DNA of 64,000 bases from a virus. Location of the stretch: positions 91,566-155,565 of IMG/VR virus record IMGVR_UViG_3300020463_000007; one strand, written 5' to 3'. The position numbers and the translations under genes were made by a program. Below the pieces are notes generated by a model. It worked only from the letters and a program-made list of their open reading frames with translations. It ran no database searches and had not been told where the DNA came from. Numbering within the stretch: position 1 is the first letter of the stretch; each line of letters starts with the position of its first letter. Below, one piece after another: positions 28,801 through 64,000 of this stretch.

Positions 28801-29367
28801 CCTGGCATTATTTTTGTAAATGGCGAAAGAATTGAATATAGACAAAAAGAAGGTAATTTGTTAAAACAATTACAAAGAGGTACTTTAGGTACAGGAGTAA
28901 ATGATTTACATACAAGTGGCACTGAAGTTTACGATCAAAGTATAGATGCTTCTATGCCATACAAAGATGAAACAATAAGTACAGTATTTACAGCAGACGG
29001 TACAAGTTCTACGTTTGAGTTAGATTTTACACCAGGAGCAGGCGGAGTAAACGAGTTTGATGTATTTGTAGCAGGACAACGTTTGAGAAAGAATTCAATA
29101 TCTTCTTATAAGTTTGAAACTACAATAAATGGTGTAACAACAAGCAGTATAGCCCAAGATAGTCCAGAAGGTGATCAAACACTACCAGCACAATTTTCAC
29201 TTACCGGTAGTACTTTATCTTTACTTAATGCTCCAGGAGAGAATCAAAAGGTTATTATTATTAGAAAACAAGGAAAAATATGGACAGATCCAGGTAAACC
29301 ACTAAGTCAAGCAGATTCTGATATAGGCAGATTCTTACGAGCTACAAGTGTTGACTTACCTCGATAA
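13807..29367 (+). CDS. Giant (5186 aa) mosaic baseplate/virion structural protein
   Basis: Uninterrupted ORF coupled to gp6 (TAATG). Contains CBM5/12-like aromatic repeats, FG-GAP-like propeller blades, GxI/V-x-V-x-I-xxPGxGY repeats and (F)TGDGxTxxF repeats. Confidence 0.8.
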   Translation: MAYDNHQKDGNADPNAKRKSEQHLPKYFRTVPNSKFLSSTIDQLIQPGTVEKLNGYYGRETAASFNKDDNYIGDFSDSRENYQFEPATVIKDNLGSVKFYKDYNDYMNQLVSYNSKVKDHSVTNKQEYYSWNPHIDWDKFINFREYYWLPSGPQTIDVRGQTTEVVSTYTVTLADNLDNFGYVFSPDGLTQNPTIKLFRGITYKFDINTPGLPFTIRTKRSLDDTFLLTNTTSNIDNQGTEEGVITFTPTDTTPDILYYVADNDIEAAGLIKVANIEESSAIDIDAEVLGKKTYTTGAGFDLSNGMKIKFIGEVTPEKYATGEYFVEGVGDKIVLINQNELTVPSAFVNDVSVNFDQQGFDRQPFDTAIGYPTVRDYMLINRSANDGNLWSRYNRWFHKSVIEQSASLNGQPVSVDESARAKRPIIEFNKGLKLFDFGTQTKTNVNLLDTHTQDVFSTIEGSTGYNIDGVDLIDGMRILFTADPDPLVNGRIFEVKFFKFDGPEIEIDQNIKQISLIEVADSKPITNEVVLVSQGNTYKGLMYYYNGTTWKQAQTKTKVNQPPLFDLFDENNKSFSDTTVYNSSSFKGNKIFSYKEGTIGTADNEVGVILSYRTITNVGDITFKFDLLTEFFEYLIGSQLYYKNTDIGFLQKYSAIASYTNLNAWQKAPTDSKQPVIRQYVFDNSTSIFDIDVYEDSAALADLSLTVFLNNELKLKDVDYEIGTSPNNLKTVKFLSPAWTSQTGLTVGDKVVLKTTSSAQKNDNGYYDFPSNLERNPLNNNLNEFTVGEVNNHVSSIVEDLSDFSGKFPGKSNLRDLGDVTKYGNRFVKHSSPLNLAMYSMLDKESNLISSMRFARREYSKFKRSFLQVAHDLGWEGPVKEHVDRIMADLNKDKINSMPFYFSDMVPQGSFTKTTHQIDDNTEEYFLLSKTFTLDTVSRDSVQVYLNSKQLVHNRDYTFNSEGFCRVTAPKTGGDLLDIYEYETTNGSYVPPTPTKLGLYPSYEPEVYIDNTVQINAPVSPSGAYKFYGVAGANQMGAGKLGWFWPLYATQSEAVAKDIEQGGAGAAHRHTFVGLNRTFYMPNTSSNHGTTEPEQNIDEWIEGAPVIQGHDGSKTVAYKDYRDTLLLELELRIFNNLKVKYDTNLFDIHDFQGGEYRKTDFDKSAVDSPMLSDFIQWTNLVDKDYTLHDFYNRTNTFTFNYESAASPSGTLMPGFWRGVYRDAYDTDRPHTHPWEMLGFSIKPTWWETQYGPAPYTKDNLVLWTDIQNGVVREPNKKIKILNKYKRTNLLDHIPVDENGNLISPNDSGYVQSFDSARLGQSFKFGHEAPVETAWRRSSEYPFSLITAWTLSQPSKVLATGFDRANQVKNLTNQIVYKTQNNQIRLSNLIFPNTHLDTTQTYTSGLINYIAGYMASSVVLSYTEYKNNIKNITNQIGFKVGGYTDKNKFKLILDSRTPLNEGNVFVPDENYNIFLNKSSPVQTISYSGLIIEKRPNGYKIKGYDNYTTAFKYFPHFERDRDPVITVGGTSEPYSEFEGGRTYTVGSIVENAGKFYRVTTQHIAGDTFDDSNFASLTKLPVQGGREIILRREFASFAPLELPYGTILSSIQDVCDFIQGYGKYLESLGFVFDNFRKSASVVDDWETATKEFAFWTLHNWSAGTLISLSPAANQLKFRSNYSVVDNIFEGFFGYTLLKVDGRKLTNDFVQVDRQNPNEFILRPKNTADGIFAIKLPLVQKEHVVLLDNKTVFNDTIYDPEPGYRQERIKVLGYRTTNWDGSLNIEGFVYDEAYIEDWQPNKDYFIGDIVKYKEFYYNANSKVPGTQSFVDKNWTRLDYKPESGLSPNFEYKTNQFADFYDLDSDNFDSEQQRLAQHLIGYQKRKYLENIINDDVSQYKFYQGFIQDKGTKNALTKLFDVLGSADKDSLEFYEEWAIKRGQYGSATGFDEVEYKLDENKFRLSPQPIELVKSITGEETDLVYRIQPYETYLKPKNYSHSPFPKKYVAPEQGFVKDSGYVNQEDVKFIVKDFDSILNIDFSNCNQGDLIWVGNDKLTWNIYRHDTTDFIVEKVTGGDTEFTVSLTSTPANIQPGDIFGVYDLISTTLDQADSTFANASTTKAAIGSFFKVKSVSLEKITFESPDKVDDVEDCKGRLSKLVSVRTDSLTKLNELAQKLASTKSKFWVDKADGDNWTVYEATQAFQKLQDISSGESIPNETFATSITANKSNTVLAVGSPDEDDGQVYIYTRGSASANFVLSQVITAPTDTAFSFKQFYTGVTYTIGELVKANNKFYTVAETHIGGVNFDVTKFTLLEKPPKLQKFGSAISISQDGKYLVVGSPNASNVKTKYKQDYNASTSYILDDIVNYNNKLWKATTSIVPQSVSIQFTSFGSVVQQIESVGNTTQSSEQIDVILTGKYPFTGINVDHVLVKLPKLMYAGLDINDQIKLKWNSKTIANQEQTTYTSKIPFPGGGMPELSSSFFSSTHQVQMKVDLILNINAFTNQPVAGDKVQTQTGSGTVAYSYEVGGSIGLYLNNITGSFDATDSLFLASGDFVGEYTTSAPSESIDVSSYYGGYVMITVPGGYNIFATTSDQAKGLVYQEAITDSSAPSNYYYNSRDFETTTVQSEDTLASYIETLTYQGLPGAGGATTPFLSPFYVIRAPKAITDTLSNGNTFKFFVPSLARYSSGIDNNPSNIGLSYAETNKELTVYDLWDGYIKFQFTKFNLFGEPFEPRIGDTVEDVTTGATAEITFYQRDALNATIFVKNVVGNFSNGSLFGNNAEIKFLGTPTDPSPIYQVDRVMGEIQRKSLGLSAEGIGKLIVVDSGANIQVPSTSAMTDTEYWFYQENTVAGVPVAANLPSAGNNDWINVYSIPAVSGATASDFENQGMYSVFGTGSTNRYGFLQSYIVPEAKEDFYLGSEIKVTKKNDLYRLFVHAGEDYTRFRDFRNLKKDLDDSTFQPGRTYFVKHGTDELGATWDWELAKDKRFQGTFSNLVSYQTDDVVYLDKGIFKANTNLSPGIFNGANWTQQTQPLDYLGYVPNNTEIVPIFDSADPSTVLDQGGLFNFGRIDVSDDGEVLIGLARYNALGKRQIVVYRNKNGNYQRHQSILADSFPAPLSAIDLDLWSTGNTLWGADIAISSDGNMIAIGEPFAEAQRDETDPSRIEIDQGRVFVMKKNTTTGFFELSQTLYTRGNEAVELFGIKVSFDGNILAITAKNADSSAKTTFDSVTGIPQTTWDNNFTTFAKKFVDTGVVHLYENIDDNLVYGQTLSYDDYRDSTQSVANIDATSSVRDFGMNMLATNGHVYVGLPLQTVAAGENGAIIDFRKEPTNNIWNEYSKPKDTVDVSKIKKVLLYNTKENKLISYIDYIDPVQGKIPGIAEQELSYKLHYDPAVYTTGTASVNTNKAEVWGEEQVGELWWDLSTAKFLNAYQGNTIYSVNNWNTQFTGNSIDVYEWTESNILPSEWNTISATTEGVTEGITGTTKYDDTVYSTKRVYDPIAQNFSTRYFYWVKGKITAPSIEGRKLSAFNVARYIDDPAGMGYRFLNFISPTSFVLHNCEGLLKDKEVALSIQYWTIENQDINIHNQYQLYTAGLDTSKPNADIERKWFDSLIGYDDAGRIVPDPNLSAKEKYGILNDPRQSWFLNKTEALKQVIDRANIVLKQNLIVDDKIITPLLSKEAVPLAAGNTYDLAVDTFQDLEFVGTAKVKQAVLTPVVVDGKIVRVTITDPGRGYKVVPAVEINGRYETPADITVTLNNVGAVTAVTVNSQGSGYDSTLTTLSVRRFAVLVRSDSTLSGKWSIYERNVNNTLWLRKRSQVFDVSLFWEYIDWYDVGYNEFTTINHLIESSYQLESLDDTTGDVIKIANVGTGGWLLLEKIDNADSIDYTINYKTIGRENGTIKFLPTLFNTAVGSGFDSASYDIKVYDVQPVKETRIILQSLRDNLFIDELAVEYNNLFLSSLKYVFAEQGLVDWAFKTSFIKARHNVGDLNKKITFQNDNLPSYEEYLKEVKPFKSKLREYISDYNQLNVSANLVTDFDLPPRWDDTRKQIVPPAVKVIDNAIVGTDTDLTTYPNKNWVDNLAYKIKRIEISDPGTGYTQAPVINFVGEDLSTTETGTGATAIARLGQGGKIASVEVINQGTGYLNPPTIEVNGSIAEGGRQAKLIAVLGDGLVRGMHTTIKFDRITGKFVVTKLSESQTFAGTGSSYVFDLIFPMDLRTNTVEITVAGELALQSEYTYENIKDISKGYDRYFGRITFVKPPANNTSIVINYKKPIEYLSASDRVSLAYNPVAGQFGNDLSQVMDGIDYGGVEVKSFEFGGNTGWDSAPWFTDSWDTYDTTYEDEVFKLDGSTISITLSKPLENGVVYNLYRNGIRLDDPNWAPEPNYDSTLIRNPNAIMQSITGDGVTTVIELQEYEVPTQADDVIIVRKVTSDGSFINDPESYDTSISGGSLAYNSATGLKAEDITIDGDGFVTPTTSKGPEEIIPGQVLDAVDISVYERPVGGSSIVVNRNHTGDGSTKSFDIGKSPFTGSSLFVKVDSDIMEPTTDDSTLGYTVNYKNKTVDFEVAPTDGAKINLTLVEVAGLQILDIDSFVSDGSSNSFETNVRWTDNVQGIATSNGKKLDAVLTKSTGEYPNNVELVLASPLQAGDVVRFALFIGDGNEIDSFSQVVVDDFIATTPQGNDTLNLSQAPFSYGPAGIHTLVQVGDDILHSGYNQEFTVSNDREYKLDLWQIPIALIQAAQVQVYLNGRQLTYTVDWTFTSAEAFDSDTPLDQQKGNTVKLADGTGVAGDKLLVYIITESQYRFGYFEQQGDSSSVFVPTPTICSFEVDRPIGTRMRVFQFSNSTAQKFSRESYTVQENTPITKGSADYYFLNNLRAGLFKLRNQAVDSKYVWVILNNKLLKADVDYSVTHDKNFVKFVSPLNQGDRVEVLHFGNPTVITKFGFRQFKDMLNRTHYKRIDGDKNYILGKDLKPYDKVIELVDASGITNPTVGSEYPGIIFVNGERIEYRQKEGNLLKQLQRGTLGTGVNDLHTSGTEVYDQSIDASMPYKDETISTVFTADGTSSTFELDFTPGAGGVNEFDVFVAGQRLRKNSISSYKFETTINGVTTSSIAQDSPEGDQTLPAQFSLTGSTLSLLNAPGENQKVIIIRKQGKIWTDPGKPLSQADSDIGRFLRATSVDLPR

Positions 29368-52381: not shown

Positions 52382-53098
52382 TTATTCCACAGAATAATAG
52401 TGATCTCGTTCATTTAATATTTTATCAGTATCTTCTGTTCTAGTACCTGTTAACTGTAAACTTACTCTTGGACCGTAGCTTGTGTTAGCCGTTGAATGAG
52501 GAGTATTCGGCCAATCAAAAATATGTATTTCTCCAGCTTTCCATCTTTCATACATTCGATTACCATACATATAAAATTGTCCTGGTTCCCAGTCATTTAG
52601 CATGATTGTTATTCTTACTACTTTAGATGGATCCTCAGGATTAAATTGATAAAGTTTGTCTATGTGTAGATTCCAAAGCTGACCTGTGGTTTGTACATGG
52701 ATTCTTTTTTGAAAATTTTCAAGATGGAAATATTCTGCCATCTCATTTATTTTTGTATATTTCTCACAGTTTCTATTAAAGTTAGATACTTCTAAGTCAG
52801 CACTAGCTCCCGCAGATGTAAGATCATATTCTTCTTGTTCTATAAACTTGTCTTTACGTTCGCCTTTTTTACCTCTTGTAGCCCAAGTAACTGGTTTGCT
52901 ATCTTTTATAACTTGTTTTAATTCTTCTTTCCAATCACCATGGAATGTTCCGCATACACGAAACGTTTCACCTTCACCGTCAACTGTGTTCTTATCAAAG
53001 TGGTAATTACTATTACTTTTTGTCCATTCCCAATTACTTTTATAGTCATCAGGATTAGTCAAATATTTCATCTTATCTTTATCAAATTTAAATGCCAT
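52382..53098 (-). CDS. Fe(II)/2OG oxygenase-like cupin (paralogue 1)
   Basis: LHIDK...DWEPGQF...WKAGEIHIFDWPNTPHSTAN...R-x-S: HxD...H triad. Confidence 0.7.
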   Translation of the reverse strand: MAFKFDKDKMKYLTNPDDYKSNWEWTKSNSNYHFDKNTVDGEGETFRVCGTFHGDWKEELKQVIKDSKPVTWATRGKKGERKDKFIEQEEYDLTSAGASADLEVSNFNRNCEKYTKINEMAEYFHLENFQKRIHVQTTGQLWNLHIDKLYQFNPEDPSKVVRITIMLNDWEPGQFYMYGNRMYERWKAGEIHIFDWPNTPHSTANTSYGPRVSLQLTGTRTEDTDKILNERDHYYSVE

Positions 53099-53119: not shown

Positions 53120-53530
53120 TTAAGTCTGCAGCTTACCTTCTTTACGCATCTTGGCACGTAATTCTGTAGCACTTATACTATGTATCTCCTTTCCTAAGTC
53201 ATGCTCTGTAAAGGTATATCCTACCCCACGACCATAACTAATATCTACAATATTAGGGACAATCATAATATTGTATTCCCTATAATATTCAAAACCCTCT
53301 TTAGCAAGTTCCTTTTTTATATTATCTTCTACATCAGCCACGATAAATGGATTGTCATCCTGCGTCATTGTACGTCCGCCTGATGCATCTGTGTCTTGCG
53401 GCACAGTTCTAATCATAATACATACTTGTCCTGTTTCAGCTAAAGCACGTTTGAATAATTCAGTATGTCCTTTATGCCAAGGTTGCCAACGTCCTAACAT
53501 TTGTGTTGTAGGCTTAAAAACATTAAACAC
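53120..53530 (-). CDS. HxGH-superfamily nucleotidyltransferase (cytidylyltransferase-like; candidate minimal ATP sulfurylase)
   Basis: GRWQPWHKGH and SISATELR motifs; coupled to the APS kinase gene. Confidence 0.75.
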   Translation of the reverse strand: MFNVFKPTTQMLGRWQPWHKGHTELFKRALAETGQVCIMIRTVPQDTDASGGRTMTQDDNPFIVADVEDNIKKELAKEGFEYYREYNIMIVPNIVDISYGRGVGYTFTEHDLGKEIHSISATELRAKMRKEGKLQT

Positions 53531-53948
53531 TATTTTTCTCCATGTAATTTTTCACTACTTCCATTAATTGTGCATGTGTATCCTCAAACCATTTTGAAAC
53601 ATGATAGTTAACAGTAGTAGGTTTTTCAAACATTTTATTTGTGTCTTCGTATCTACCTTCTTTAATAGTATCCATCCAAACTAGATAATCTGCATCAAAT
53701 TCTTGTCTTGCTCTTTCTGTAGGACAAATAAAATCAGCAACTGCAACTTTTCCTGCACTAACAACACCATCAGCTAGATAACGCATTCTTTGTGCTTGTC
53801 TAACTCTACCTTCTAAACTAAAATCCCAGTCTTTATATTTGTCTCTTACAGCATCTGCATTTATATGAATTGCACCAATTAATTCTGCAAAAGGTTTTGC
53901 CAGCGTGGTTTTACCACTACCAGGCAAGCCAAATATTAATATTTTCAT
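53523..53948 (-). CDS. cysC: Adenylyl-sulfate (APS) kinase-like protein
   Basis: GLPGSGKTTLA P-loop; NADAVR...DFSLEGR...ADFICP...R matches the CysC DGDxxR/LGFS/ISP core. Shorter than cellular CysC. Confidence 0.75.
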   Translation of the reverse strand: MKILIFGLPGSGKTTLAKPFAELIGAIHINADAVRDKYKDWDFSLEGRVRQAQRMRYLADGVVSAGKVAVADFICPTERARQEFDADYLVWMDTIKEGRYEDTNKMFEKPTTVNYHVSKWFEDTHAQLMEVVKNYMEKNSV

Positions 53949-54586
53949 ACTGCGCCTTTCTTGCTACTTGCTAATTGAATTGTTTTATCTAATACCGATT
54001 CTGCTTGTGATATGTATTTCTTATTCGCATCTTTAGATAATATTTCTAATAGTTTAGTATCATCTATGGTTACTTCATTTGGTAACAATCCTAGTTGTTT
54101 TTCTAAAGATTGTAAATATCTTATCTCATACAAGTATAATAACTCTTGACTAGCAAATATTGTTTTATGGCCAAGTATTAGACTATCTAACTGTTTTATA
54201 AAAAACGGTGTTGTATATTTTCCTCTTACACGTTCTTGCTGTAATTTTACAATATTACTATCTCTTCCTATTATAAGTAATTGTATTTTGCAAAACTTTC
54301 TTGCTACTTCTATAAAATTATTATATTCTGGAATAGTTTCTATACCATCATCAAAATAAGGACAGCTAATACTTGTAATAAAATATTTACTTTGTTTCCA
54401 ATCAAATTCATTTAGCTTTGACGGGTCTTTCCAACACTCTGCGAACGGTTCTAAATCATGACCTTCCCAATATTTTTCTTGTAATTTTGGCCATACAAAT
54501 ATATTTTTGTTTTGTCCTAACGCTTTGCTGAATAAATGGTTACCGCTTCCTTGCGGACCAGTCATTATAGTAAGTAAAGGTTTCAA
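53945..54586 (-). CDS. Sulfotransferase-fold P-loop protein
   Basis: IMTGPQGSGNHLFSKAL 5'-PSB-like loop; IIGRD 3'-PB-like motif; adjacent to cysC. Confidence 0.55.
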   Translation of the reverse strand: MKPLLTIMTGPQGSGNHLFSKALGQNKNIFVWPKLQEKYWEGHDLEPFAECWKDPSKLNEFDWKQSKYFITSISCPYFDDGIETIPEYNNFIEVARKFCKIQLLIIGRDSNIVKLQQERVRGKYTTPFFIKQLDSLILGHKTIFASQELLYLYEIRYLQSLEKQLGLLPNEVTIDDTKLLEILSKDANKKYISQAESVLDKTIQLASSKKGAV

Positions 54587-54783
54587 AGTTTACCCCATTT
54601 TATTATATTCCATATACGTTCGTGTACATAAAATACAAACGTGTTAGCAGTAAGTTGTATAATTGCAATAGAACCGCTTATACTAATGTCACGCAATATT
54701 GCGTAACTAATTAAAAATGTGCAAAGTGTACCAGTTAATCTCCATGATACTGTCTTTACGAGACTTCTTACTTTAGTGTCCAT
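54583..54783 (-). CDS. DUF2061-like small membrane protein
   Basis: RSLVKTVSWR...FYVHERIWNIIKWG signature. Confidence 0.8.
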   Translation of the reverse strand: MDTKVRSLVKTVSWRLTGTLCTFLISYAILRDISISGSIAIIQLTANTFVFYVHERIWNIIKWGKL

Positions 54784-55514
54784 ACTGTATCACGCGATCC
54801 ATTAGCAATAATTTCCCTAGTTTTATCTGATTTTAACCCTGTAATCTGTATGCAGGGTCTTGCAAAATTACTTGTGTTAGCGGTTGCGTGTGGCACATTA
54901 GGCCAATCAAATATATGAGCTTCTCCGGCTTTCCATCTTTCATAGATAAAATTACCATACATATAGAACTGTCCTGGTTGCCAATCATCTAAGAAAAATG
55001 TAATACGACATACTTGTTCAGGATCTTCTATGCATCTATCCCAAAGTTTGTCAATGTGTAAGTTAAACATTTGACCTGTAAGTTGAACATGGGCACGATA
55101 TTTTAATTCGTCCTTACCACCCACTACGCCAAAGTGTTCTTTCATTTTAACAAGCATAGGATAATCCTCTAACTCATCTTTCATATTTGTAAGCATAAGT
55201 TTTTTAGGATCACCTCCTCCTTGTATAATATCATATTCTTCTTGTTTCAACATTGGAGATGCATCTTCTTTATGTCCGAAGAATTTTCTTGTTTCCCAAT
55301 TGATAGCTTTAGTTGCATTTTCAACTAATCTATCTCTATCTATTTTCCATAACTCAGGATTATCAAATCGGCCTAAAACTTTAACCCATTCGCCTTCCTT
55401 GTCTTGAATATTATTATCAAAATGATATTCACTGTGTGCTACAGTCCAATCCCAATTACTTTTGTAATTGTCTGCAGGTTCTAAAGTTTTAGTCCAATTT
55501 GTTTTGTGCATCAT
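54768..55514 (-). CDS. Fe(II)/2OG oxygenase-like cupin (paralogue 2)
   Basis: LHIDK...DWQPGQFYMYGN...WKAGEAHIFDWPNVPHATAN; closely similar to 52382-53098. Confidence 0.7.
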   Translation of the reverse strand: MMHKTNWTKTLEPADNYKSNWDWTVAHSEYHFDNNIQDKEGEWVKVLGRFDNPELWKIDRDRLVENATKAINWETRKFFGHKEDASPMLKQEEYDIIQGGGDPKKLMLTNMKDELEDYPMLVKMKEHFGVVGGKDELKYRAHVQLTGQMFNLHIDKLWDRCIEDPEQVCRITFFLDDWQPGQFYMYGNFIYERWKAGEAHIFDWPNVPHATANTSNFARPCIQITGLKSDKTREIIANGSRDTVWTLK

Positions 55515-57019
55515 ACGTAATCAAGTCCTTTATCTTTTCTAACTAAACTGTTTATAAATATTCCTAATGCAACAACGATACATATAAGGAATATAGGATG
55601 GTTATATATGTTAAATAATTCAAACCACCTAAAGTCGGACATTGAACTTAATCCTGGTTTCCATTGTTTATAACCATAAATCTGCAATGTACCCCAAAAG
55701 TATTCATCTATCTTAAAAGCTACAACGTATGCAACTAGAATTGCTGGTCTACTAATGTTCCACATTTTACATAAGACTCCTATAGCACTTAAGATAGCAA
55801 GTAAAGCTAAATCTTCCCAACCACCTGTGTATTGCATATTAGCATAAATGATTACTGCTAAAATAAAAGTAGCGTAAATCCAAAAAGGCACTTCTAATAT
55901 TTTAAGTATATACTTGTATAAAAATATACTTAATAATGCAACACCAATAGTCCCAAAAATATAACCAAATGCTAAACTATTTGTAAATTGTATATCATCT
56001 AATAGACTTGGTGTACCAATCTCCATACCGAAATACATACATATTGCCATTACCATTGCGGCAAAAGGTGCAGCTGGTATTCCAAACAAACATGCAGGAA
56101 TCATACTAGATACCTTTTGTGCATTGTTTGCTCCTTCACACCCTAATAATCCTACAGGGTTACCTTCACCAAAAGGAACTTCTTGATCTTTTTCTTTATG
56201 TGCGGCCTTTGTGGCACCGTATGCTAAGAAGTCACCTACTGCGCCTCCTACACCTGGTAATAAACCAGTAACGAAGCCAATCAACCCACCACGTATCATA
56301 TCACGCCAGTGTGTTTTTACATCACGGAAGCCTTGGAAAAGACCTGTCCAATAACTTCCATTTATTGGTGGTGCTGCGGATTTTAATTTTCTTCTAAATC
56401 CATCTAATAATTCTGGTACTCCAAACAGGCCTGATAGTAAAACTACCATTCCTATTCCATTTTGCAAATATTCCCAACCAAATGTTAGTCTAGGATTACT
56501 TACAACATCTTCACCAACCATACCTACTGCTAGTCCGAATATGATTGCACATATACTTAAAAATACATTTTTACTTGCCACAAAGCCTACACAGGCTAGT
56601 GCCATTGTCATGAAGCCCAGAAACTCTGGACGTCCGAATAATACTATAATCTTCCCATAATAAGGAAGTAAAAAGAATGTTAGTGCCGCAAATACAACTC
56701 CGTTAAAAGTAGAGTCAGCAATAGCAATACCCATTGCTCTTGAGGCTTGGCCTTTTTTCGCCATAGGATAACCATCTATAACACAGGCCGCGGTTGTACT
56801 TGCTCCTGGTATGCCTGTAAGAATACTTGTATAACTATCTGCACTTGCACAACTTGCTACTATTGCAGTAAGAAAGACTAACCCCAAATAGGGGTCAGCC
56901 ATAAAGTATGCTCCCATGCTAAAGACAGTTATCAGGGCAGTAGTTACACCTGCAATAGGTATAATACCAACTAGCATTCCATACATGGTGCCAATTAATG
57001 CCCAGATAACATAGTCCAT
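55511..57019 (-). CDS. tctA: Tripartite tricarboxylate transporter large membrane subunit
   Basis: About 500-aa polytopic protein with GIIP...GIPG...DGYPMAKKG, GLLPGVGG, EGANNA and FGIPA TctA signatures. Confidence 0.9.
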   Translation of the reverse strand: MDYVIWALIGTMYGMLVGIIPIAGVTTALITVFSMGAYFMADPYLGLVFLTAIVASCASADSYTSILTGIPGASTTAACVIDGYPMAKKGQASRAMGIAIADSTFNGVVFAALTFFLLPYYGKIIVLFGRPEFLGFMTMALACVGFVASKNVFLSICAIIFGLAVGMVGEDVVSNPRLTFGWEYLQNGIGMVVLLSGLFGVPELLDGFRRKLKSAAPPINGSYWTGLFQGFRDVKTHWRDMIRGGLIGFVTGLLPGVGGAVGDFLAYGATKAAHKEKDQEVPFGEGNPVGLLGCEGANNAQKVSSMIPACLFGIPAAPFAAMVMAICMYFGMEIGTPSLLDDIQFTNSLAFGYIFGTIGVALLSIFLYKYILKILEVPFWIYATFILAVIIYANMQYTGGWEDLALLAILSAIGVLCKMWNISRPAILVAYVVAFKIDEYFWGTLQIYGYKQWKPGLSSMSDFRWFELFNIYNHPIFLICIVVALGIFINSLVRKDKGLDYV

Positions 57020-57030
57020 AGGTTAATCCT

Positions 57031-58086
57031 TTACTTTAAAAGCTCTGGCTTATAAATTGATGGAAAGCCATATGCTTCCTGATTCCATTTAACCGCATCT
57101 TTAAGAGCTTTCTCTGTAATTAGGGATTTTAGAGTAGCTAATAATTCTGGGCCATCTTGGATCCAAGGATAAGTTCCTGTTTTAGCATAAATTTCAGCAC
57201 TTGCAACTGGATCATTAATCATTTCAGTTACAGCCGCTTTAATCTTTTCTGCATTAGGATTGCCTTTGTTTACCCAAAGAGACTTTTGGATAGCATCACG
57301 CCAGTTACGTGTTAAGCGATATGCTTCATACAAATCACCTTTTGGTGCTTCGCCCCATAACTTTTCGTACAAGTCCTCGAACTGTGTACCTGGAAAGTTT
57401 GGGTCTGCCATTTGTACTTTATTTTCTAAGTCTAGGATACCGTGTGTGAACCAAAGTTCATTACCTTCGATACCTTCGTAGAAACGTTTCCAAGCCGCAG
57501 GCGATTCACGTGCTACATCAAATTCACCGTTTTTAAAACCAAGACGCTTTTCGCCTCCTGATACACCGTTAACCCAAGTTACACGTTCTCTCCAACATTT
57601 TAGATAGTCGTCTACTGTGTTGCCACCCTGTGGACCACAAAGTAACATTGCAACTGCCGCTGCATCTGGTTCAAAACCTGATCCACCTGCAATAGTCCAG
57701 TTTCCTGATTTTTCATCAGCACCAGCATGTTTACCAAGAACAATATCATTGTTCATAGAACCCATTAGTTCATAGTCGAAGTAGTTGTAGTCAATCTTAT
57801 CTAGCAAGAATGATACACCGTTACCACCGTGTGCAACCATAATTGTTTTGTCATCAAAACGTAGACTGTTGTGGAACTTGTTAAACCCAGGAATATCTCT
57901 TGCTCCTGGAATATGACGTACTACTACTGATTCGCCAATAAACTTTTCTAAGTTCTTAGCGATAATTTCGCTCCATACAGAAGTACCTTTACCGGGTGCC
58001 TGAGGAACAATCAGCGTATAATCAGCAAAAGCTGTTGTAGCTGACATCGTTAAAGCCATAAAGACTCCAATGATTAGTTTCTTCAT
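57031..58086 (-). CDS. tctC: Tripartite tricarboxylate transporter periplasmic binding protein (TctC/Bug-like, divergent)
   Basis: Signal peptide ending AFA; LIVPQAPGKGTS and VVVRHIPGA Bug-type N-terminal motifs; directly upstream of tctA with a strong AAGGAG RBS. Confidence 0.75.
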   Translation of the reverse strand: MKKLIIGVFMALTMSATTAFADYTLIVPQAPGKGTSVWSEIIAKNLEKFIGESVVVRHIPGARDIPGFNKFHNSLRFDDKTIMVAHGGNGVSFLLDKIDYNYFDYELMGSMNNDIVLGKHAGADEKSGNWTIAGGSGFEPDAAAVAMLLCGPQGGNTVDDYLKCWRERVTWVNGVSGGEKRLGFKNGEFDVARESPAAWKRFYEGIEGNELWFTHGILDLENKVQMADPNFPGTQFEDLYEKLWGEAPKGDLYEAYRLTRNWRDAIQKSLWVNKGNPNAEKIKAAVTEMINDPVASAEIYAKTGTYPWIQDGPELLATLKSLITEKALKDAVKWNQEAYGFPSIYKPELLK

Positions 58087-59011: not shown

Positions 59012-59719
59012 ATGTATGATGAAAGTAAACTTATATTCTTTACCGGTGCTCCGGGAAGCAAATGGAGTGCAGTATCGAATGTAATATCAAAAAATACAAT
59101 TATGCCTATAAACATATCTGATCATAGAGATGACAGAGTGTATACGCATACAAGATCTCCAGTTCAACATTTAGGTGCATATTGGGGTCCTGGCCAAGAA
59201 CACGGACAAAAATTTGATCAACTCGAAACATTAACAAAAGAACAAATAATTCAAGAGATAGATGGGCCGTATGCCGATAAAACTTGGGATACTCATAGAA
59301 TTATCAAATGCCATCATTTTTCTTTGCAATTAGATTACATAAGAAAAACTTTTCCATTAGCAAAAATAATAATTGTGCTTCGAACTGAAATAAAAAATTT
59401 CAGAGGCTGGAAAGGTGCCGGCGGCTTTGAGTCTATTGATTATCCAGATTATCATACATATTATAAAAATTATGATCTACTCAAAGAAAAAATATTTGAA
59501 GAAGTAGCCGCGGCAAATAATTGGGTAGGCGAAAATAAGTTAAGAGTTAATGTTTGTGATAGACACTATTTTAAAGAACGTTGGGGTTTAGAATCTAAAG
59601 AAGATTATGATTGGTTGGATTTTTATATTTCTTCTATAGAGAAAAGCCAACCAAAAGAAGTCAACAACTTTAATGGCAGATATGTTCTTGATGTAAATAT
59701 TTGTGAATACAATTTTTAG
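59012..59719 (+). CDS. Sulfotransferase-fold protein (paralogue 1)
   Basis: FFTGAPGSKWS loop, IIKCHHF catalytic-His motif, FPLAKIIIVLR 3'-PB-like motif. Confidence 0.6.
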   Translation: MYDESKLIFFTGAPGSKWSAVSNVISKNTIMPINISDHRDDRVYTHTRSPVQHLGAYWGPGQEHGQKFDQLETLTKEQIIQEIDGPYADKTWDTHRIIKCHHFSLQLDYIRKTFPLAKIIIVLRTEIKNFRGWKGAGGFESIDYPDYHTYYKNYDLLKEKIFEEVAAANNWVGENKLRVNVCDRHYFKERWGLESKEDYDWLDFYISSIEKSQPKEVNNFNGRYVLDVNICEYNF

Positions 59720-60699: not shown

Positions 60700-61489
60700 T
60701 GAACCTATAAGGCCTAGAAAAACAAAAGGACAACAACCTAAAATTCGTAAACAGATTTTTAACGAACCTCACACTATAGATCTATGGAATGGTAAGGATA
60801 CTGAAGAAAATAGTAAACCTTGGGTAGGCGGAAGAGGTCGTGATTTATTTACTGCACACGTTGCTCAAAAAGAAGCCGTTAAAAAACATATAGAATATAG
60901 ATGGAATAGTTTAGGACTCAGGGGACCTGAACCAAATTACAAAGCAAATAAAAAAATTATATTTGGTGGCGGAAGTTTATGTTTAGGAAATGGTGTAAAT
61001 GTAGAAGAAAGTTTTCCCCACATTGTTGCAACAAGTTTAAATGCATCTTATATGAATTTAAGTCCAGCTGATACTCTAACTGATCTTATAGACCCATTAA
61101 TAGAATTTAAAAACTTTGAACCCGATTATATTATTTTAAATGACACAAGATTCTTTCAAAATTATGGTTGGGCATTACGTCAAATATATAAAATGAAAAA
61201 ATTAGAACAAGATGAAGGTTATAAAAAACATTTTACTAATTCTGATATAGATTGTTTAAAATTATTTGACTACTTTTTAAAAGGTTTGTTTCCGAATGCA
61301 AAATTTATTCTTGCATATTGTGAAAGGAGAGCATGGAAATCTATAATTCCAAACTTGAATAATATATATAAAGTACCGTTTGAAGCAAAAGAAACTGTAG
61401 TTGATTTAGCAAGAGATGGATTTCATCCAGGAGTTGAATCACACAAAATTATGGCAGAAATGATTCTAAAAGGAATAAACAATGTATGA
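60692..61489 (+). CDS. SGNH/GDSL hydrolase-like protein
   Basis: NSLGLRG, GGSLCLG (block I Ser), RDGFHPG (DxxH). Confidence 0.65.
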   Translation: MSDEPIRPRKTKGQQPKIRKQIFNEPHTIDLWNGKDTEENSKPWVGGRGRDLFTAHVAQKEAVKKHIEYRWNSLGLRGPEPNYKANKKIIFGGGSLCLGNGVNVEESFPHIVATSLNASYMNLSPADTLTDLIDPLIEFKNFEPDYIILNDTRFFQNYGWALRQIYKMKKLEQDEGYKKHFTNSDIDCLKLFDYFLKGLFPNAKFILAYCERRAWKSIIPNLNNIYKVPFEAKETVVDLARDGFHPGVESHKIMAEMILKGINNV

Positions 61490-62216
61490 AGATTACACAG
61501 GTAAAGATTTAATAATAGCAACAGGTGCTCCAGGAAGCAGATGGAGTGGAACATTGCGTATGATAACATGTAATACAGATATTAATATATCTGACGAAAC
61601 ACCTGATAGGATATATGATCATATAGCAGTCAATCCTAAAACAGGAGCAGAACAAGCTAGAGGATGGCATAGAGGAGCATATTGGGGACCTGATCATGAA
61701 TTTGGAAGCAAGTTTGATGTTATTAACACACTAACTAAAGAAGAAATTGTAGAAGAATTTAAAAAACCATTTGGAAATTGGGAACCTGGCAAAAAAATAA
61801 TTAAAAGCCATTGGTTTGCTTATCATCTGCCATTTCTAAAAGAAATGTTTCCAGATGCTAAGTTTATAGGTGTACAGCGTAGTAACACTGGCTGTTTTGA
61901 ATGGTGGCATGTGTGCGGCGGTTGGGACATTTCATATCCGCATTACTTTTGGTATAAGGACGATGATCGTATGCGTGAACAAATAGCTAAAGAAAATGCT
62001 TGCATTACACAGTTTTTCCCAGACAGGAAAAATCATACCATTGAAGAAATATTTTTAGCATTAGGTCTTCCTAATAAAATAGTTAAGTATAAAGAGTTTC
62101 TTGAAAGAGATGACAAACTTGCAGAAGTATTAGATGATAAAAATAGTGCAAAAAGTGATGACTATCGTCCAGCTTTAGACTTTGTTGTAGGCAAAGTTTT
62201 AACAGGTATTCTGTAA
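61482..62216 (+). CDS. Sulfotransferase-fold protein (paralogue 2)
   Basis: ATGAPGSRWS, HRGAYWGP, IIKSHWF, FPDAKFIGVQR; paralogous to 59012-59719. Confidence 0.6.
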   Translation: MYEDYTGKDLIIATGAPGSRWSGTLRMITCNTDINISDETPDRIYDHIAVNPKTGAEQARGWHRGAYWGPDHEFGSKFDVINTLTKEEIVEEFKKPFGNWEPGKKIIKSHWFAYHLPFLKEMFPDAKFIGVQRSNTGCFEWWHVCGGWDISYPHYFWYKDDDRMREQIAKENACITQFFPDRKNHTIEEIFLALGLPNKIVKYKEFLERDDKLAEVLDDKNSAKSDDYRPALDFVVGKVLTGIL

Positions 62217-62936
62217 TCGTTCTTTATAATATAAGATAGGAAAATAACCTAGTTGCGGCATCTTATAATGTAAGTGTACCTTATCTCCTGTAGAAAACCA
62301 ATCATCGTGTATACAAATATCACCTTTAACAAGTAATTCGTCTGTCTTGTAATCAATTTGATAACAACAATTTAAATTTTCACCCATTATAGGTAAACCA
62401 CCAGGCGCCCATTCTGCATGTCTATCAACATACTTTAATGTTTCAAAAGTTGTGTTTATTGCACATGGACCTATTTCGCTCATACCCCAATTAGCTATTA
62501 CTGTTGCACCTTTGCTAACAAATTTACGAATGTGATCCCATGGAATAATATCACTGCCCATTGCAATAACTTTACCGTTAAAATTAGCATCTTTAAAACC
62601 TTTTGTTTTTATTAATGCTTCACACATTGCTGGGGGCAAAAAAGTATGTGTATATTTTTCAAAGTCTTTAATAAAACTAAAAGGATTAAATTTTGTTATA
62701 AAAATATCACAACCTAATGTATATGCAGGTAAACTCTGTAAAAGTAAACCTCCTGCATGAGTCATTCTTGTACATGTAAATATTTTGCTTTGTGATGTAA
62801 TATATTGATCTTTTATAGCGACAGAATTACATGCTTCTAAATTTTTTGGACTACGAAATATCTGTTTAGGTGTGCCTGTGGTCCCACTACTTGATATAGT
62901 GCAACCTTCTTTTAATATTTTTTTGAAGTCTGTCAT
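62199..62936 (-). CDS. Truncated adenylate-forming (ANL/AMP-binding) enzyme
   Basis: SSGTTGTPK P-loop, THAGG, WGMSE, ELLVKG, WFSTGD; only 245 aa. Confidence 0.8.
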   Translation of the reverse strand: MTDFKKILKEGCTISSSGTTGTPKQIFRSPKNLEACNSVAIKDQYITSQSKIFTCTRMTHAGGLLLQSLPAYTLGCDIFITKFNPFSFIKDFEKYTHTFLPPAMCEALIKTKGFKDANFNGKVIAMGSDIIPWDHIRKFVSKGATVIANWGMSEIGPCAINTTFETLKYVDRHAEWAPGGLPIMGENLNCCYQIDYKTDELLVKGDICIHDDWFSTGDKVHLHYKMPQLGYFPILYYKERLQNTC

Positions 62937-63769
62937 AATTCAGTAGCATACTCAGTTTTTTTCTTTTCATATTGTGCAATTAAAAATTCTGTGACTACAC
63001 CTGTTTTATCAGTTGCTGTAATACCACCACTTGAACTAGTAATAAAAACTTCATCAGCAGATTCAAAAAAATCTGCACTTATAGGCATGCGTTTGAATGT
63101 AGAACCATTTTCATTTGCAATGTCTTCAACAACACTCATTGTTATACCTTTGAGTACATTTTTATCAGATGTCATTATAATTTTATCTTTAACAATACCA
63201 ACATTAAATCCAGGACCTTCAGTTATAAATCCGTTAGTGTCAACTAAAACAGTTGTGTCATAATTACTTGGCTTGTTACGCTGACTCATTGTAAGTTCAA
63301 TCCAAGCCATATTTTTATATGTCTGCCCATAATAATCATCATTTACACGTTTTGTATCTCTATCTAAAAATAGTTTTACTTGTGGTGTACTTGCTATAGG
63401 GTAACTTGGTTTTATGTACATTGCAAAATTTACAGGGCAATTTTCTAAGTCTCTTGGATTTCCACTAGGTGGATAACCACGCCATATTAAAAACCATACA
63501 AATGCATTTTCAATAGGATTGCGTTTAGCTAATTCTTTAATAATCTTTAGAGGATCTACGTCTGGAATTGCAAGGCCGTATCTTTCTGCACTATTCTTAA
63601 ATCTTTGTAAATGTCTTTCATAACAAAATGCTTTGCCGTTATATACTGGCATTACATCATATGTTGCATCGCAATGAATAAATCCAAAATCTAAAATTGT
63701 TGGACCTATTTGTCCTAACGGCTTATATTCTCCATTTTTATATGCTATTAAATCTAATACATTAGTCAT
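62933..63769 (-). CDS. PLP-dependent class IV aminotransferase (BCAT/DAAT/ADC-lyase fold)
   Basis: DFGFIHCDATYD, HLQRF..SA, catalytic Lys in TYKNM, ITEGPGFN, LKGIT, ADEVFITSS. Confidence 0.9.
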   Translation of the reverse strand: MTNVLDLIAYKNGEYKPLGQIGPTILDFGFIHCDATYDVMPVYNGKAFCYERHLQRFKNSAERYGLAIPDVDPLKIIKELAKRNPIENAFVWFLIWRGYPPSGNPRDLENCPVNFAMYIKPSYPIASTPQVKLFLDRDTKRVNDDYYGQTYKNMAWIELTMSQRNKPSNYDTTVLVDTNGFITEGPGFNVGIVKDKIIMTSDKNVLKGITMSVVEDIANENGSTFKRMPISADFFESADEVFITSSSGGITATDKTGVVTEFLIAQYEKKKTEYATEL

Positions 63770-64000
63770 CAAACTTTACCTTTTTAAGTTGTGGATCATC
63801 TGGTAATTTTTTCTTTAATTCTTTTAATCTGTTTATACGCCATTCTAATAATTTAAAATCAAGTATCCAAGGAAAAAAAGCATGTATCAAACTGCCTAAG
63901 CATACAAAAAGCAAGAAAAAGAATTCGTTTATTGCGAGCCTGAAGTGCCAAAAATAACCAGCATCGGGTCTACCTGCTTTTGTTTTTGCTTCATTTAAAT
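63762..64000 (-). CDS. DUF6356-like small protein, start outside the window
   Basis: Not in the ORF track. Manual translation: LNEAKTKAGRPDAGYFWHFRLAINEFFFLLFVCLGSLIHAFFPWILD...KVKFDD*; Y-x-x-H...IHAFFP as in 51133-51378. Confidence 0.6.
   Translation of the reverse strand, partial: LNEAKTKAGRPDAGYFWHFRLAINEFFFLLFVCLGSLIHAFFPWILDFKLLEWRINRLKELKKKLPDDPQLKKVKFDD

Follow-up and report, generated by a model that had tools for sequence, protein, structure and literature searches.

Two types of enzyme, Sat and CysDN, are known to activate sulfate. A gene cassette of a marine jumbo phage raises the question of whether there is a third: could a nucleotidyltransferase of only 136 aa, encoded beside a short APS-kinase homolog, make APS and so form one half of a stripped-down PAPS synthase? 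The cassette lies at positions 53120-54783 of the window, by which we mean the whole 64,000-nt stretch of the virus record that was analysed. As the first-pass annotation had described, the ORF listing shows four overlapping genes on the minus strand, encoding a DUF2061 small membrane protein (66 aa, 54583..54783), a sulfotransferase-fold protein (213 aa, 53945..54586), the APS-kinase homolog (141 aa, 53523..53948) and the HxGH nucleotidyltransferase (136 aa, 53120..53530; hereafter NT), which has a GTG start and carries the motifs GRWQPWHKGH and SISATELR. Along the cassette, each gene shares 4, 4 and 8 nt in turn with the next, the 8 nt being common to kinase and NT. The cassette continues an operon-like, tightly packed run of minus-strand genes upstream, namely a 351-aa ORF (57031-58086), TctA (55511-57019; PF01970, 288 bits) and a Trp-rich 248-aa ORF (54768-55514). 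The gene order of this run is repeated in a related phage locus (L015), where TctA is 94% identical, and a megablast search of GenBank phages returned no match to the cassette region. The absence of sat and cysDN, claimed earlier for the window, extends to the entire 155,565-bp record (∼44% complete), in which no Sat, CysD or CysDN was found. Two other cytidylyltransferase-like genes of the record were considered as canonical NMNATs and rejected, as they are HldE/HldC-like. Other genes of the island in the window encode an AMP-binding enzyme, an aminotransferase, methyltransferases and oxygenases.

Judged by sequence, the 141-aa kinase is a member of the APS-kinase family and not a nicotinamide riboside (NR) kinase. 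It matches PF01583 (APS_kinase) with 33.0 bits, above the gathering cut-off of 21.1, and the kinase-half profile finds nothing but APS kinases among its best PDB matches (E 1e-16 to 1e-11; 1e-16 to 1e-12 for the top 17), compared with 2e-5 for shikimate kinase, 2e-3 for NRK1 and 4e-3 for NadR. Pfam also reported a weak AAA_28 match. In the alignment to canonical CysC, residues G7, G12, K13, D32, R35, R48 and R54 are invariant, and F43 and F73-x-x-P76 (FxxP) are conserved as well. The kinase has kept the P-loop, the F(I/V)xP motif, the Phe, both of the Arg that bind APS and, in LDGD, the catalytic Asp at the second of the two Asp positions. The same alignment bears out the earlier remark that the KGLY lid is lacking, as ∼20 lid residues (RDxKGLYKKARxG...) are deleted relative both to canonical CysC and to P0210, a CysC fusion described below. 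Furthermore, NAD replaces DGD: the first LDGD Asp, a Mg2+ ligand, is Asn30 in the window kinase and Asn in all stand-alone short kinases. Across the family this motif toggles between NAD, NGD and DGD, and some fused members keep DGD. In hPAPSS1, the D87A substitution of this Asp abolishes APS-kinase activity (PMC8528679). The Asn at this position and the missing lid are real caveats for an APS-kinase function. A complex prediction for kinase and NT scored 0.00, which gave no verdict and was weighed neither way.

NT itself is, by homology, a truncated relative of NadM and archaeal NMNATs and not a reduced Sat. Pfam gave CTP_transf_like at 19.2 bits, below the cut-off, and the ESM Atlas labels the NT cluster only as 'cytidyltransferase-like domain-containing protein'. 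The ATP-sulfurylase family PF01747 reached a non-significant 14.4 bits (E 0.025, cut-off 24.3, residues 16-43 only) and TIGR00339 reached 12 bits against a cut-off of 323. Similarly, Sat was absent from the profile-to-PDB sequence matches except for stubs of 2.4 and 0.8 bits. The family profile matched NMNATs with E 2e-11 in an alignment running only through strand β-3, and NT stayed below the NadM/archaeal NMNAT cut-offs (PRK01153, 28.5 bits versus 127; TIGR01527, 21.5 versus 181). The profile-to-1f9a alignment covers residues 5-67 and then 110-136, with ∼17 profile positions between them. Some 27-40 NMNAT residues after β-3 are skipped in this way (∼68-109 in 1f9a, ∼83-129 in 4yp7), and this segment between β-3 and the last strand is what we take to be the nicotinamide pocket. 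The AF2 model of NT (pLDDT 88) has a generic HxGH fold with three DSSP strands and 4-5 helices. It resembles NMNAT structures (TM 0.65-0.68 in Foldseek, Z 9.6-10.6 in VIA-align), PPAT as the second-best structural match (VIA-align Z 9.8) and Sat (1v47, VIA-align Z 8.6), and Foldseek and VIA-align did not separate the three.

Conservation within the NT family is concentrated in the catalytic motifs. Invariant or near-invariant are G13, R14, Q16, P17, H19, G21, H22, R41, N60, P61, G100, R101, Y105, I119, S120, T122 and R125, and with them the HKGH and I-S-A-T-E-L-R motifs; both NMNAT motifs, GRxQPxHxGH and ISxTxIR, are present. That HxGH and ISxTxxR are invariant argues for an active enzyme. The two His of the HxxH motif are essential in the ATPS domain (PMC11697783). 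R41 and R101, near-invariant and specific to the family, are candidate anion ligands. The loops GRWQP and YGR(G/D)VGY are placed comparably to QxRNP and GRDHAG, the loops of Sat that bind sulfate and phosphate, a likeness of position only. The ∼200-aa-plus catalytic domain of Sat and its PUA-like N-terminal domain are missing from NT.

Kinase and NT occur together far beyond chance. The kinase adjoins NT in 72 of the 77 phage loci with enough upstream sequence (other neighbour counts are over 80 phage NT loci), the pair recurs in many cellular genomes, and a single protein family, phrog_10255, covers both. In total, the module was found in at least 447 viral contigs, in very diverse phage contexts that include radical-SAM islands. 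The first-pass annotation had proposed searching related phages for fusions of the two domains, and these indeed exist in phages as well as in cells. Fused kinase-NT genes are carried by Xylella, Xanthomonas, Stenotrophomonas and Clavibacter phages and by metagenome representatives, and fused frames of 258-289 aa are present in SAR11. NT is also fused to a full canonical CysC, as exemplified by P0210 (PF01583, 212 bits), in which LDGD, FISP and KGLYKKAR are intact. This protein is identical on four contigs, and at least 37 marine loci encode it over its whole length at 62-99% identity; on a 103-kb contig, a fusion of this type is separated by two gene positions from a TPR-Sulfotransfer_3 protein (160 bits). 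A search for the Sulfotransfer_3 family gave no match in the phages Salvo, DLP_6 and Bacata, which carry the fused gene, and this counts against a role in PAPS supply. Apparent fusions that join NT to pieces of chorismate synthase, DHQS_C or UCH (P0169, P0194, P0242) and an internally duplicated protein (P0131) were set aside as probably chimeric or fragmentary predictions.

The DUF2061 protein matches PF09834 over its full length (69.7 bits, E 3e-19, cut-off 23.1, profile positions 1-52 of 52). Of the 80 phage NT loci, 24 have DUF2061, in most cases with kinase and NT on either side of it; the order kinase, DUF2061, NT occurs in ∼22 phage loci and in one SAR86 genome (G030), and DUF2061 abuts NT in both this genome and another (G037). 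The sole CysD-bearing SAR86 genome (G017) has no NT and contains an operon of CysD, CysN-CysC, DUF2061 and CysQ. Set against the kinase-DUF2061-NT order of G030, this arrangement suggests that NT occupies the CysDN slot. DUF2061 fusions among longer proteins were limited to one uninformative 184-aa protein. DUF2061 would appear to be a recurrent small membrane partner of PAPS-synthesis modules. As for the make-up of the module, the kinase-NT pair held up, with DUF2061 as its recurrent third member, whereas the 213-aa gene proved optional, adjoining NT in only 2/80 phage loci.

Does the phage also encode an enzyme that would use PAPS? The 213-aa protein had been called sulfotransferase-like, a description that holds for its fold but not for sequence families: it has no Pfam, NCBIfam or PHROG match, nor a PDB sequence match. 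With its AF2 model (pLDDT 88.5), the best Foldseek match was the sulfotransferase 4gox (E 4.7e-4), TPST1/2 were matched at probability 1.0, and sulfotransferases took every one of VIA-align ranks 1-13 (Z from 12.9 down to 9.3), ahead of generic kinases at ≤9.2; 4gox aligned with Z 12.9 and an rmsd of 3.8 over 173 residues. The family has an invariant G10-P-Q-G-x-G-N-H17 loop with no basic residue where the 5′-PSB usually has its catalytic Lys/Arg, and R108-D109, which follows a strand and is also invariant, is a candidate for the 3′-PB Arg; both positions were assigned by eye. Modelled structure thus makes the 213-aa protein a probable PAPS consumer. Possible further consumers are two plus-strand ORFs with weak, below-cut-off matches to PF13469 (Sulfotransfer_3), of 235 aa (59012..59719; 15.3 bits, E 0.024) and 244 aa (61482..62216; 19.5 bits, E 0.0013).

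A clearer link to sulfotransferases is found in cells. SAR86 operons have the order Sulfotransfer_3 (135-157 bits), kinase, NT, and the sulfotransferase is directly upstream of the pair in 10 SAR86 genomes. Across 61 SAR86 genomes, 26 have both NT and a sulfotransferase, 2 only NT, 4 only a sulfotransferase and 29 neither (Fisher p 7e-11, in a test that ignores phylogeny), while Sat and CysD were each detected in 1/61. The four sulfotransferase-bearing genomes without NT also have neither Sat nor CysD, which counts against reading the pair as a PAPS module. On a complete SAR86 chromosome with two sulfotransferases, Sat, CysD, CysH and AprA are all absent, and no APS-kinase homolog occurs apart from the one that adjoins NT. 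SAR86 genomes with sulfotransferases and the pair, lacking Sat, CysD and AprA, thus seem to have no other source of APS. A second HxGH gene of SAR86 (L267, ∼372 aa), considered as a candidate for the NMNAT of the cell, gave no PDB sequence match. In SAR11, the association between NT and sulfotransferases is only moderate (15/10/6/20 in the same order, p 0.011, again ignoring phylogeny). SAR11 has been described as having cysC and cysQ and missing sat, cysD and cysH (PMC5069961), and assimilatory sulfate reduction is missing from 135 complete genomes, while SAR11 sulfotransferases sit in its hypervariable glycan region (bioRxiv 10.64898/2026.04.03.716430).

We propose NT as a sulfate adenylyltransferase because of its pairing with the kinase, the CysC fusions, the operons with sulfotransferases, its co-occurrence with sulfotransferases in genomes without Sat or CysDN, and the shared DUF2061. 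It is likely, in our judgement, that the 136-aa protein makes APS and that it forms a stripped-down PAPS synthase with the short kinase. NT would be a drastically reduced NMNAT-type HxGH enzyme that lost the segment from β-3 to the last strand and gained an invariant Gly-Arg loop (YGRxVGY). At its active site, sulfate instead of the NMN phosphate would attack the ATP α-phosphate, giving APS and PPi. The short kinase would then phosphorylate the 3′-OH of APS to PAPS and pull the unfavourable adenylylation forward, and PAPS would feed the phage sulfotransferase-fold protein(s) and/or host sulfotransferases. Sulfate as the substrate, APS and PAPS as the products, the coupling between NT and kinase and the molecule that is sulfated are what we infer from genes, homology, fusions, operons and phyletic patterns. 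Sulfate adenylylation is thermodynamically very unfavourable, which counts against an NT without a GTPase partner. With slightly less assurance, we also consider it probable that a third, minimal class of sulfate adenylyltransferase (∼120-136 aa, of NMNAT-type descent), working with an APS kinase that has no lid and in many cases with DUF2061, is what makes PAPS in streamlined marine bacteria, SAR11 and SAR86 among them, and that hundreds of the phages of these bacteria have acquired it, probably for sulfating surface glycans or metabolites during infection. A literature search, covering few subscription journals, found no described enzyme of this kind and no publication on the NT family.

An unlikely alternative is that PAPS is indeed the product of the module and APS the substrate of its kinase, but with APS coming from host Sat/CysDN or AprBA, and that NT has another role in the pathway, either an adenylyl transfer that activates another anion or acceptor or a structural or regulatory one as a stand-in for the kinase lid. 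SAR11 has AprBA (989 bits), which could supply APS without any sulfurylase, a Stellaceae genome (G005) holds CysD and CysH alongside the kinase-NT pair, and hosts of the terrestrial phages with the fused gene presumably have CysDN. The insignificant similarity of NT to Sat points the same way. This alternative does not account for the SAR86 genomes in which sulfotransferases and the pair occur without Sat, CysD or AprA. It is also at odds with a canonical CysC fused to NT exactly as to Sat or CysN in known bifunctional enzymes, with NT in the CysDN position beside DUF2061, and with the invariance of the catalytic HxGH and ISxTxxR motifs.

It is improbable that the pair makes some other 3′-phospho-adenylyl compound or NDP-activated metabolite, on the model of HldE or of PPAT acting with dephospho-CoA kinase, for instance a CoA-like or novel cofactor for nearby tailoring enzymes. 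The rank of PPAT among the structural matches, the enzymes of the window island and the diversity of phage contexts with their radical-SAM islands would fit such a role, but the kinase scores as an APS kinase and retains the Asp/Arg/Phe/Arg and FxxP pattern that is specific to this family, and neither the fusion to a genuine CysC nor the operons in which genuine sulfotransferases and CysQ take part would be explained. Least probable of all is a permuted, split NadR-like pair, in which the kinase acts on nicotinamide riboside and NT is an NMN adenylyltransferase for phage NAD+ salvage, e.g. against NAD-depleting defence: NadM/archaeal NMNATs are the best sequence and structure matches of NT, the kinase has its AAA_28 match, and the upstream neighbour of the fused gene in phage Bacata is annotated COG3236, which we take to be the NADAR domain, but the kinase profile favours APS kinases by many orders of magnitude over NRK1 and NadR, the NT-NMNAT alignment ends after β-3, and the >10 contexts examined contain no NAD-salvage gene, whereas links to sulfotransferase, CysC, CysQ and DUF2061 recur.

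Should NT indeed be a sulfate adenylyltransferase, it would be a third type, one third of the size of Sat, and a case of non-orthologous displacement in a well-studied pathway. It would explain why no ATP sulfurylase of a known type is found in SAR86 or in SAR11, the most abundant bacterium of the sea, although both keep cysC, cysQ and sulfotransferases, and would bear on the sulfation of their hypervariable, phage-receptor-bearing surface glycans. The phage copies would constitute a widespread auxiliary metabolic module supplying the activated sulfate donor. A PAPS synthase of ∼260-310 aa could also serve as a compact PAPS-regeneration part for enzymatic sulfation.

Compared with known systems, NT is closest to the archaeal/NadM NMNATs (1f9a, 4yp7, 2qjt; NadR N-domain). 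The GRxQPxHxGH motif is nearly identical and the NPF loop and ISxTxIR are shared, whereas NT is ∼30-45 residues shorter and has a short Gly-Arg loop in place of the stretch from β-3 to the last strand. Sat-type ATP sulfurylases (PF01747; yeast Met3, T. thermophilus 1v47, the PAPSS ATPS domain) belong to the same HxGH superfamily and catalyse the reaction proposed for NT. The two share a C-terminal ISxTxxR helix and an HxxH motif in which a basic residue stands between the His (HKGH in NT), and each of them occurs in fusions or operons with APS kinase. However, Sat has ∼350-400 aa against 136 in NT, which is without the PUA-like N-domain, and its GRDHAG is matched by the YGRxVGY loop in position only. 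CysDN and CysN-CysC hold the pathway position proposed for NT and have the same SAR86 neighbours (DUF2061, APS kinase), and CysD and NT are mutually exclusive in the SAR86 sample. The fold of CysD, a PAPS-reductase-like ATP pyrophosphatase, is unrelated to that of NT, and CysN drives the reaction by GTP hydrolysis, whereas NT has no such GTPase partner. Among bifunctional PAPS synthases, the kinase-NT order is that of metazoan PAPSS (APSK-ATPS) and the NT-CysC order that of bacterial Sat-CysC (2gks). Unlike in these enzymes, most kinases here have no lid and carry Asn at the first DGD Asp, and the two-enzyme unit measures ∼260-310 aa instead of ∼550-630 aa. The proposed coupling logic would nevertheless be the same, with an unfavourable adenylylation tied to a kinase.

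The window is the final 64 kb of a 155,565-bp IMG/VR virus record (GC about 32%; completeness about 44% by CheckV). Its 136-aa HxGH nucleotidyltransferase (NT) recurs unchanged on a 342,932-bp contig and as a close relative on a 342,607-bp UViG, indicating that the source is a marine jumbo phage. A minus-strand run comprising a 351-aa ORF, TctA, a 248-aa ORF, DUF2061 (54583-54783; secure Pfam assignment), a 213-aa ORF (53945-54586), a 141-aa kinase (53523-53948; APS_kinase threshold passed) and NT (53120-53530; CTP_transf_like, NMNAT and ATP-sulfurylase signals, all sub-threshold) is translationally coupled. The last four genes overlap by 4, 4 and 8 nt, confirming the cassette described in the first-pass annotation, and its remark that sat and cysDN are missing holds beyond the window: no Sat or CysD was found anywhere in the 155,565-bp, about 44% complete record. 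The phage-borne TctA (288 bits) and the preceding 351-aa ORF, which lacks a Pfam match and is possibly a TctC-like binding protein (55511-58086, minus strand), also head the cassette in three related phages (L015, L016 and L018). Two paralogous Trp-rich proteins of 238 aa (52382-53098, minus) and 248 aa (54768-55514, minus) flank the cassette; their sole family signal is a faint Asp_Arg_Hydrox match (E 0.074), which makes them possible oxygenases of the cupin or 2OG type.

Elsewhere in the window, a single 5,186-aa ORF (13807-29367, plus strand), preceded by a 1,204-aa ORF (10193-13807), presumably encodes a giant structural or fibre protein. A 245-aa AMP-binding (ANL) enzyme, half the usual size, overlaps a 279-aa class IV aminotransferase (62199-63772, minus). 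Outside the window, the same record encodes an HldE-like bifunctional heptose kinase/adenylyltransferase (L006, 736-1890) and a protein that joins an HldC-like domain to a mannose-6-phosphate-isomerase-like cupin (L007, 973-1734), which together suggest phage-encoded activated-heptose synthesis.

From their sequences, the kinase and NT are predicted to be a functional unit. A single PHROG profile covers both, and the kinase was found in 72 of the 77 phage loci (out of 80) with enough upstream sequence, overlapping or abutting NT in 52 of them; in about 22 phage loci only the DUF2061 gene parts the two. The first-pass annotation had proposed looking for fusions of the two domains. Cultured phages of Xylella, Xanthomonas, Stenotrophomonas and Clavibacter carry such genes (about 245-290 aa), as do many metagenome representatives and SAR11 genomes. 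NT also forms the N-terminal part of the metagenome protein P0210, whose other part is an entire canonical CysC (212 bits). P0210 is identical on four contigs; this architecture recurs at at least 37 further loci (62-99% identity) and, on a 103-kb contig, lies two genes away from a TPR-Sulfotransfer_3 protein. In Xylella phages Salvo (L001, 3593-4339) and Bacata (L003, 2593-3333), the fused gene overlaps an upstream COG3236-annotated gene, with a MazG-like pyrophosphatase nearby; since a search for Sulfotransfer_3 only found none in the terrestrial phages carrying the fusion, its role there may differ. In a related phage (L015, 6443-7830; contig JGI24004J15324_10000008), NT is directly followed by DUF6552 and by genes for a PNP_UDP_1 nucleosidase-like protein (237 aa) and a HIT-family protein (147 aa). 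Because certain HIT proteins have adenylyl-sulfate or AMP derivatives as substrates, this arrangement could be part of the nucleotide-sulfate metabolism proposed for NT.

When a profile built from the kinase halves of the fused relatives was searched against the PDB, the top matches were all APS kinases (E 1e-16 to 1e-11), with shikimate kinase, PSTK, NRK1 and NadR following later (E 2e-5 to 4e-3). Aligned with canonical CysC, the kinase keeps the P-loop, D32 (the second Asp of LDGD), R35, F43, R48, R54 and FxxP; about 20 lid residues (KGLYKKAR...) are absent, as initially noted for the KGLY region, and Asn replaces the first Asp of LDGD. This Asn is a real concern, because D87A and D89A each abolish the APS-kinase activity of human PAPSS1 (PMC8528679). 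At this site fused family members carry NAD, NGD, SGD or canonical DGD, and one of them, P0263, is almost canonical.

The AF2 model of NT (pLDDT 88) adopts a minimal HxGH Rossmann-like fold. Foldseek ranks archaeal NMNAT first (TM 0.65-0.68), and for this predicted structure the VIA-align scores of NadM (10.6), PPAT (9.8), Mj-NMNAT (9.6) and T. thermophilus ATP sulfurylase (8.6) appear effectively tied. The family profile matches NMNATs (E 2e-11) only through beta-3, then omits about 27-40 NMNAT residues, which probably carry the nicotinamide pocket, and resumes at GYxV...ISGTEIR; an invariant Gly-Arg loop, YGR(G/D)VGY (R101), replaces the omitted stretch, and R41 is near-invariant. The ESM Atlas labels the cluster only 'cytidyltransferase-like', and we found no paper describing the family.

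All 13 best structural matches of the 213-aa model (pLDDT 88.5) were sulfotransferases (Z 12.9-9.3), so the label 'sulfotransferase-like' stands by predicted structure, although no Pfam, NCBIfam or PHROG family matched the sequence. Its gene adjoins NT in only 2 of 80 phage loci and is thus an optional consumer rather than core. Weak Sulfotransfer_3 signals were seen in ORFs 59012-59719 and 61482-62216.

In cells, NT was found at no fewer than 214 loci, mostly in SAR11 and SAR86; a complete SAR86 chromosome and Pelagibacter isolates are among the carriers, and the short kinase accompanied NT in every context examined. SAR86 operons combine Sulfotransfer_3 (135-157 bits), kinase, NT and a 2-hydroxyacid dehydrogenase, the sulfotransferase lying about 0.55 kb upstream of NT in 10 of 28 NT-positive genomes. 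In a sample mostly of MAGs or SAGs (≥80% complete), and counting selected sulfotransferase families only, 26 of 61 SAR86 genomes had both NT and a strong sulfotransferase, 2 NT only, 4 the sulfotransferase only and 29 neither (Fisher p 7e-11, shared ancestry ignored); the corresponding counts for 51 SAR11 genomes were 15, 10, 6 and 20 (p 0.011, likewise ignoring ancestry). Sat and CysD were each present in one of the 61 SAR86 genomes, the latter NT-negative. Two sulfotransferases are encoded on the complete SAR86 chromosome, whose lone APS-kinase homolog is the one beside NT; no Sat, CysD, CysH or AprA was found on it. SAR11 strains have been tabulated with cysC and cysQ (and aprA) and without sat, cysD and cysH (PMC5069961). 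A set of 135 complete Pelagibacter genomes reportedly lacks assimilatory sulfate reduction and carries sulfotransferases in the hypervariable surface-glycan region (bioRxiv 10.64898/2026.04.03.716430).

Several neighbours of the cellular genes were also recorded. The D-2-hydroxyacid dehydrogenase (160-169 bits; L103, 4165-5121; L104, 3965-4921) always follows NT in the SAR86 sulfotransferase-kinase-NT operon and may hint at a sulfated metabolite. A PF03601 (YeiH-type) membrane protein lies directly upstream of the kinase on the complete SAR86 chromosome (L040, 6649-7548), and in Pelagibacter HIMB1495 the pair has a PF04143 'Sulphur transport' fragment in its vicinity (L059, 10636-11055). Contig 2 of HIMB1495 carries a glycan-biosynthesis island whose genes include those for a formyltransferase, a PPDK-like protein, a GATase, an NTP-transferase and a 364-aa protein (L102, 4956-6050, minus); in the last, a near-canonical APS-kinase domain (118 bits) precedes a C-terminal half, about 215 aa long, of no assigned family. 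The closest 'cellular' NT matches (57-63% identity; L022-L031) have the phage-like form of 131-136 aa and lie on very long contigs (among them L029, 336,904 bp, Pelagibacteraceae SAG AG-426-I21; L025, 461,811 bp) from genomes of single cells labelled as SAR11, SAR86 or Alphaproteobacteria. The contigs could belong to jumbo phages captured along with the cells, in which case they would give a clue to the host.

If NT were not a sulfurylase, APS would have to come from another source; this is viable for SAR11, where AprBA is present, and for phages of CysDN-bearing hosts, but it fails for SAR86, and we consider it unlikely overall. That the pair makes some other 3'-phospho-adenylyl or NDP-activated product is a good deal less probable, leaving unexplained both the CysC fusion and the operons with sulfotransferase and CysQ. 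Least probable is a NadR-like pair of NR kinase and NMNAT, against which stand the kinase's family affiliation, the missing NMNAT segment and every gene context examined.

The proposal of the first-pass annotation, that NT makes APS and together with the short kinase forms a stripped-down PAPS synthase, is supported. Like all family members, NT would bind ATP via its HxGH and ISxTxxR motifs; a small anion pocket (candidates R101 and R41) would take sulfate instead of the NMN phosphate, yielding APS and PPi from sulfate and ATP. The coupled or fused kinase would convert APS to PAPS, pulling the unfavourable equilibrium forward, and PAPS may serve phage sulfotransferase-fold proteins (53945-54586, perhaps 59012-59719 and 61482-62216) or host sulfotransferases. 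We regard the NT family as a putative variant of sulfate adenylyltransferase that is both new and minimal. The sole CysD-bearing SAR86 genome (G017) has an operon of CysD, CysN-CysC, DUF2061 and a CysQ-type phosphatase, and a sibling genome (G030) has kinase, DUF2061 and NT; DUF2061 thus marks PAPS-synthesis operons, and NT occupies the place of CysDN. In P0210, NT is the partner of CysC, whose known fusion partners are Sat and CysN.
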